From: Octopus vulgaris | Lineage: Eukaryota | DNA: 64,000 bases | Assembly (NCBI GenBank): GCA_951406725.2 | Contig: OX597836.1 | Location: 11,594,001 to 11,658,000 of the forward strand | Reading direction: 5' to 3' | Shown: positions 6,650 to 7,028 of the stretch, piece by piece | How positions within the stretch are numbered: position 1 is the first letter of the stretch | Layout: each line of letters starts with the position of its first letter | Position numbers and translations under genes: made by a program | Notes under the pieces: model-generated | Told to the model about the DNA's origin: nothing | Seen by the model: the letters and a program-made list of their open reading frames with translations, nothing else | Databases searched by the model: none

Positions 6650-7028
6650 CACTGGTACCTAATTTGTCGACCCACGTAAGGATGAAAGGCAAATTCGACC
6701 TCGGCAGGGTTTGAACTCAGAAGGTAGCGACGGGCGAAATACCTATTTCTTTACTACCCACAAGGGGCTAAACACAGAGGGGTCAGACAAGGACAGACAA
6801 ACGGATTAAGTCGATTACATCGACCCCAGTGCGCAACTGGTACTTATTTCATCGACCCCGAAAGGATGAAAGGCAAAGTCGACCTCGGCGGAATTTGAAC
6901 TCGGAACGTAACGGCAGACGAAATACGGCTACGCATTTTGCCCGACGTGCTAATGTTTCTGCCAGCTCGGGCGAAATACCGCTAAGCATTTCCTCCAGCG
7001 TTCTAACGATTCTGCTGGCTTGTCACCG
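6650..7028 (-). mobile_element. SINE-C nested in an older SINE-C
   Basis: Young copy 6744-6967 flanked by 13-bp TSD cgggcgaaatacc (6731-43 / 6968-80). Confidence 0.88.

Follow-up and report, generated by a model that had tools for sequence, protein, structure and literature searches.

How does a short interspersed element come to lie inside another copy of its own family, at the very nucleotide where the tandem arrays of that family are joined? The question is raised by positions 6650-7028 of the window, the whole 64-kb stretch of Octopus vulgaris DNA analysed here, in which one copy of a family with the working label SINE-C interrupts another. Here we report an analysis of this locus and of SINE-C junctions, targets and arrays in the window and elsewhere in the genome.

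SINE-C is a short (233 nt), non-coding and highly repeated element, with at least 134,670 exact young tails in the 2.8-Gb genome over which the genome-wide counts were taken. Its consensus, to which all element positions refer, was built by script from 68 full-length copies. The sample used for local analyses comprises 1.264 Mb, made up of the window and 120 stretches of 10 kb; its choice was not wholly random, in that one 200-kb block overlaps a region met in the tail search and 200 kb flank the window. Target-site duplications of 9-27 bp were called for 65 of 167 tail-ended elements, and their variable length, together with 5' truncation, is as expected of a tRNA-derived SINE. With mismatched flanks as a control, the caller reported duplications in 4 of 261 pairs, compared with 48 of 88 real elements. 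Elements at most 60-80 bp from a locus edge, duplicates from overlapping loci, and low-complexity flanks (6 of 71 duplications) were left out.

The head of the element contains stretches that appear by eye to resemble the A and B boxes; no tRNA or Rfam match was obtained on the copies at 4945-5295 and 6651-7030. The head (window 4946-5050, plus strand) folds into a long hairpin (z = -3.1) whose 3' arm has site 50 at its top. The junction of tail and site also forms a short inverted repeat, and the tail alone gave no stable fold (z of -0.17 and 0.89). Because the head hairpin contains site 50, antisense insertions at its mirror arm were searched for, and 15 of 474 tails were flagged (overlapping loci included); all 13 distinct ones that were re-checked proved to be sense junctions, and this candidate was rejected.

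The nest and a recurrent insertion site at position 50

All parts of the nest lie on the minus strand. The inner copy (6744-6967) spans element positions 10-233, or 8-233 if the 2 bp common with the flanking repeat are included, and over positions 8-233 it agrees with the family consensus at 215 of 226 aligned bases (95%). It is bracketed by an exact 13-bp direct repeat, whose 3' copy (6731-6743) corresponds to outer positions 50-62 and follows immediately past the young tail, and whose 5' copy (6968-6980) has its final 2 bp in common with the inner head; because these 2 bp also belong to the element head, the length of the duplication is 11-13 bp. The older host is split into a head (6968-7030, positions 1-62), which matches the consensus at 49 of 62 bases, and a body without the 3' part (6651-6743, positions 50-141), which matches at 80 of 92, so that host identity is 79-87%. 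The repeat carries the older variant of positions 50-62 found in the outer copy, and the inner copy has a C at its own position 50. The 13-mer is not unique, since it occurs six times in 1.264 Mb, two of these at the nest itself. A young copy was thus inserted at position 50 of an older one, as a reading made from the sequence alone had described. Both heads are retained in 3 of 51 position-50 composites, and this nest is one of the three.

The same sequence-only reading had equated the insertion site with the recurrent junction of SINE-C arrays, and the genome-wide counts bear this out: 34,318 of the 134,670 exact young tails lead straight into the exact nine bases of position 50. Among 107 tail-to-SINE junctions in the 1.264-Mb sample, 84 lie at position 50, 12 at position 17 and 11 elsewhere, four of these last being position 50 with a short tail repeat; a further 68 sampled tails end in non-SINE DNA. 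Double-headed junctions, defined as a host head followed by at most 16 bases and a new head, number 87 genome-wide, compared with 1 and 5 at two control internal 17-mers. In the sample, the control 17-mers occur roughly three times as often (101 and 87 vs 32), which gives an enrichment of about 85-fold per site.

We examined the first 30 double-headed loci (29 distinct), chosen by the 5' junction alone. The reciprocal 3' junction was found at position 50 in 26 of them, with one ambiguous and three lacking it. At these 26, 8-16 bases match the left copy and variants private to the host are present on both sides; repeat length and 5' truncation vary from locus to locus, and four hosts (L159, L170, L173 and L180) have kept an outer duplication of their own. 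Position 50 is therefore a true self-insertion hotspot. The possibility that the 13-bp repeat is a fixed part of a dimeric master does not agree with locus-specific nests of varied repeat length or with the excess of 87 over 1 and 5. A fixed, Alu-like dimeric master was likewise excluded, as the second units of composites are older and diverse, and nests vary in duplication and truncation.

Tail subtypes, target motifs and a candidate partner LINE

Target sequences were read from the left, pre-existing copy of the repeat in the 65 tail-ended elements with non-simple duplications, whose median length is 15 bp. Elements with T at position 221 have GGTAT (at least four of five bases) in 21 of 35 targets against a background of 1.6%, TATAT in 10 and AGAAA in one, and those with C at position 221 have AGAAA in 12 of 28 targets (background 3.4%) and GGTAT in two; the cross-association of tail subtype with target motif is significant (p = 9e-7). 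The expected enrichment of GGTAT at insertion sites is thus present and in register with the tail. The match ends at +5, with no enrichment at +6 to +14 in either subtype. As position 50 begins with GGTAT and position 17 with AGAAA, each of these tails has its own self-site, and a double-headed nest at position 17 was also found (L073). Where the target and the bases following the tail differ, the tail motif wins in 11 cases, loses in five and neither prevails in three, a weak preference. Two further GGTAT duplications pointed out in the window are real: that of a monomer at 27206-27441 (minus strand), whose 9-bp duplication (27206/27433) starts with GGTAT, and that of a dimer joined at position 17 with a 217-bp period (31678-32160, plus strand), whose 19-bp duplication (31678/32142) holds GGTAT in the tail register.

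Upstream of the cut, targets of the GGTAT/T subtype show no similarity to the self-site. Those of the AGAAA/C subtype are weakly like site 17 (42 of 130 vs 21% expected), with one of 26 being a true site-17 nest, and this likeness may be a hint that the enzyme has a preference. The idea that GGTAT is an enzyme motif valid for the whole family found no support, since the motif follows the tail subtype and is shown by none of 17 LINE copies sharing the tail.

It had been proposed that tail-to-target microhomology primes reverse transcription and that the element, carrying its own target, therefore nests recursively. The enrichment of GGTAT in non-SINE targets agrees with the first part, but the motif depends on the subtype (GGTAT, AGAAA or TATAT), and position 17 is a further self-site. 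As the cause of self-insertion, five-base pairing falls short. Of 1,694 exact GGTAT sites, 131 are SINE position-50 sites, and of 33 terminal T-subtype tails, 8 run into exact GGTAT outside SINEs; about 0.7 self-insertions are then expected and 51 composites are seen, an excess of about 75-fold, so that such pairing covers about 1/75 of the self-insertions. Recursive nesting has a real hotspot in its favour, but two heads are the product of simple nesting and were kept in only 3 of 51 composites, and some units arose by local duplication.

To find a partner LINE, the zf-RVT domain was used to retrieve 30 loci out of 25,803 candidates. Seventeen of the 30 belong to one family whose 3' end matches SINE-C positions 188-233, with 38-42 identical bases of 43-46 aligned; the bases following this tail were GGTAT in none of the 17. 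One member (L309) has a 459-aa open frame with a CCHC knuckle and a 1132-aa open frame with the zf-RVT match, for which the best solved relative is human L1 ORF2p (E = 3.5e-66, residues 11-869). Its organization, with ORF1 and an ORF2 holding an APE endonuclease, a reverse transcriptase and a zinc finger, fits the plan of the L1/Tx1 group; the Tx1 label is a presumption from motifs. Judged from the shared last 45 nt, this L1/Tx1-like LINE is the likely partner of SINE-C. Other LINE families share the tail more loosely. One of them (L088), with a tail identity of only about 80% and a location in (ATCT)n, was set aside as a poorer candidate; its APE-RT-zf element (L088:800-6750, G000:C10) has three tandem 3' ends, each leading into (ATCT)n.

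A very young (98-100%) ORF1-only element of 1.78 kb with a SINE-like tail was observed in head-to-tail arrays (L156:5100-6750 and L259-L278). The L309 LINE and the ORF1-only element begin at nearly equal positions of one other repeat (L309:1-1050 and L156:4440-4970), which suggests that the two have a common target.

Seamless composites, probable head replacement and array growth

Most position-50 composites lack the second head, as does the one at 4945-5295 (plus strand), in which a young full unit is followed by an older unit from position 50, the two being 20.6% apart. The ages of units were compared in 87 seamless multimers drawn from sampled and junction-targeted loci, without composites whose junctions differ from 44, 49 or 50. 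By CpG decay, last units are older than first units (146/631 vs 98/682, p = 5e-5). This gap stems from multimers ending in old-type or truncated units, and young-ended arrays show no significant gap (16/138 vs 17/133; 42/165 vs 52/159). The old-type last units are diverse rather than clonal, with nearest neighbours 10.6% apart. In one older subfamily, 17 of 75 copies are preceded by a young unit; in the oldest, none of 18 is.

The repeats flanking old-ended composites (n = 21) match the repeats of old monomers in decay (p = 0.42) and exceed the repeats of young monomers (p = 0.007); at most one mismatch is found in 5 of 21, compared with 21 of 33 young monomers (p = 0.006), and three of the 21 pairs are perfect. 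As these flanking repeats are decayed, the site is old. The single head of such composites, in turn, shows young-level divergence at positions 5-49 and 51-59 and old-level divergence from 62. At positions 5-20 it is of young type, differing from the outer heads of nests (32/448 vs 46/347, p = 0.005), a comparison group selected by survival as nests, and not from young monomers (p = 0.54). A head variant found in none of 66 old monomers is present in 5 of 30 old-ended composites. In double-headed nests, positions 5-35 of the outer heads show 13-16% divergence.

The simplest reading is that a new cDNA annealed to the host head and replaced it, so that homologous overwriting is the likely origin of the seamless junctions. 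Double-headed nests would then be an end-joined minority. Young-level sequence at positions 51-59 could stem from selection for intact targets rather than from RNA templating. Priming far downstream in the host through long RNA pairing was rejected, as host-level divergence already starts at position 62.

Other arrays in the window include a four-unit array with a 184-bp period and junctions at position 50 (17757-18465, minus strand), a three-unit array with neighbours 11-12% apart (52046-52646, minus strand), and two 5'-truncated arrays, one with three position-50 junctions (53883-54345, plus strand) and one with an old-type last unit and neighbours 12-15% apart (56309-56863, minus strand). 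Neighbours measured in the window's own arrays are 4-21% apart. In the larger set, 18 of 84 adjacent young units differ by less than 2%, compared with 1 of 4,004 pairs between arrays, and long arrays thus also grow by recent local duplication (or through assembly error).

Some loci have heads repeated with a 57-65-bp period before a full unit (L166/L167 and G000:C11:89645235-89645384), by repeated nesting or head duplication. Another locus (L087:5100-9160) combines a SINE array with two LINE-type tails; the 2.7-kb self-match of 100% identity at an offset of 1,378 bp in L087 is a product of overlapping extracted slices.

Proposed mechanism, alternatives and related systems

We consider it moderately probable that the nest is one case of a genome-wide self-insertion hotspot that likely operates by target-primed reverse transcription, with the 3' extension of the RNA likely pairing with the nicked target. 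An L1/Tx1-like LINE protein would bind the common 45-nt tail and nick DNA, and priming would work where the target can pair with the extension of the RNA, which is GGTAT, AGAAA or TATAT depending on the subtype. At position 50 the pairing would be longer, in that read-through RNA of existing multimers would match positions 50-60, and the finished cDNA would also match the 49 bases upstream; for these two reasons position 50 would far outcompete other GGTAT sites. It is to these features, which we infer, that the excess of about 75-fold over five-base pairing would be due. The cDNA would usually anneal to the host head and replace it, leaving a seamless unit followed by a headless one; where the host head is too diverged, as at 6650-7028, the ends would be joined and two heads and a duplication would stay. 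Each junction would be a fresh target, with local duplication lengthening arrays as well. More tentatively, and as a possible rather than a probable extension, SINE-C may be a SINE whose RNA tail programs its own target: junctions would give read-through RNA a longer 3' match, this RNA would seek out position 50 in decayed copies, whose promoter head the cDNA would overwrite, in a feed-forward loop that would have reworked about one quarter of one older subfamily (17 of the 75 sampled) with no need of a site-specific enzyme.

Among the alternatives, a site-specific enzyme is an unlikely but serious one. Here a Tx1-type endonuclease would cut position 50 and another position 17, the subtypes would ride different LINEs, and the tail extension would be a relic of earlier landing sites. 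The 75-fold excess would be accounted for; other transposons are known targets of Tx1-clade LINEs and of the SINEs that travel with them (PMC4494074); and both the weak upstream similarity in AGAAA-subtype targets and the fixed targets of other LINE families in this genome, e.g. (ATCT)n, are in keeping with such an enzyme. However, the resemblance of GGTAT-subtype targets outside SINEs to site 50 is limited to +1 to +5, and copies of the LINE family whose tail end is closest have no GGTAT after it. No LINE end lies at site 50 or 17 among the 30 zf-RVT loci or 11 further LINE C-terminal matches, which argues only weakly against the enzyme, given a small and biased sample (30 of 25,803 candidates), and none of the 18 sequences upstream of site 50 that are neither head nor tail shows a LINE-type tail.

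The two other alternatives concern how composites are assembled. Insertion of whole multimers in one step, from dimeric masters or through a switch of template from one RNA to another at the GGTAT match, is very improbable: it would fit the single duplication that flanks a whole multimer, the three perfect repeat pairs of old-ended composites, the missing age gap of young-ended arrays and the presence of more than one unit between one repeat pair at L165 and L181, but it disagrees with the greater age and the mutual diversity of the last units and with the age of their flanking repeats, and it leaves unexplained the double-headed nests that have host-private duplications. We also regard as very improbable that all events start double-headed and lose one head later by recombination between the 62-bp heads, arrays arising via unequal exchange. 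That surviving nests have diverged outer heads, which would resist recombination, is as this scenario predicts, and the near-identical adjacent young units indicate that DNA-level duplication does occur; with random crossover, however, the left of the head should be old, and positions 5-20 are of young type, the heads compared there being selected by survival.

The preferred reading, tail-guided self-insertion with head replacement, has parallels among described systems. In the crocodilian SINEU/Tx1-Mar pair and in Tx1L inserted in Tx1D (PMC4494074), a Tx1-type LINE moves a SINE, as is likely for SINE-C, and, as in SINE-C, insertions occupy fixed spots in an abundant repeat and copies are stacked sequentially. 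SINEU and Tx1-Mar insert into a DNA transposon, and a duplication lies between their tandem copies (PMC4494074), whereas SINE-C targets its own head, forms mostly seamless arrays and has a motif that follows the tail subtype. In L1, CR1, L2 and RTE the duplication starts with bases that the RNA also has at its 3' end, the first base following the tail repeat, and this tail-target overlap of one to several bases (one or two for RTE in animals) is thought to help priming (PMC6007223). The overlap in SINE-C differs in comprising five bases and three alternative tails in one family, two of them matching internal self-sites.

R2 elements encode a restriction-like endonuclease and target rDNA. In their experimentally obtained "anneal" junctions, a cDNA with upstream homology yields a seamless 5' junction with no duplication, and without homology the ends are joined (PMC11331408). 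SINE-C would resemble R2 in both outcomes; it differs in that its likely helper is an APE-type LINE and the homology is the element's own head. Squamate SINE-derived satellites and the jerboa Dip/B1 tandems (PMC10702118) are also similar, with partial-unit arrays, one longer terminal unit and frequent multimers. Those arrays are ascribed mainly to duplication and unequal recombination, whereas many SINE-C units were inserted separately, at different times, at one nucleotide.

The tRNA-derived SINEs OK, OR1 and OR2 have been described in octopus (Ohshima and Okada 1994, via PMC4824008 and PMC4758252), and SINE-C may be one of these. L1-Tx1 and SINE families of an octopus are listed in PMC13282606, and the word "nested" is not found in its main text. 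None of the papers listed by the literature searches describes this octopus SINE self-insertion. The parts of the reading (tail-target overlap, transposon-targeted Tx1/SINE pairs and anneal junctions) are known, and their combination was not found in print.

How LINE machinery chooses sites and completes 5' ends has mostly been studied with R2 or L1 reporters. SINE-C offers tens of thousands of natural events with donor and target markers (age, subfamily and tail type), in which pairing-guided targeting, and annealing as against joining, can be scored genome-wide. If swapping tails moves the target, an APE-type LINE would be partly RNA-programmable. The family also represents an insertion route from a SINE to a tandem repeat, and repeat libraries will mis-split it into dimers and 184-bp satellites.

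Two other repeats lie close to the nest in the window. A tandem of three 178-bp units occupies 6035-6577; every unit carries a tRNA-Met(CAT) gene, and the middle one is degenerate. A different tRNA-headed repeat (7345-7720, plus strand) adjoins the nest; the head of the latter also breaks a SINE-C copy at L050.
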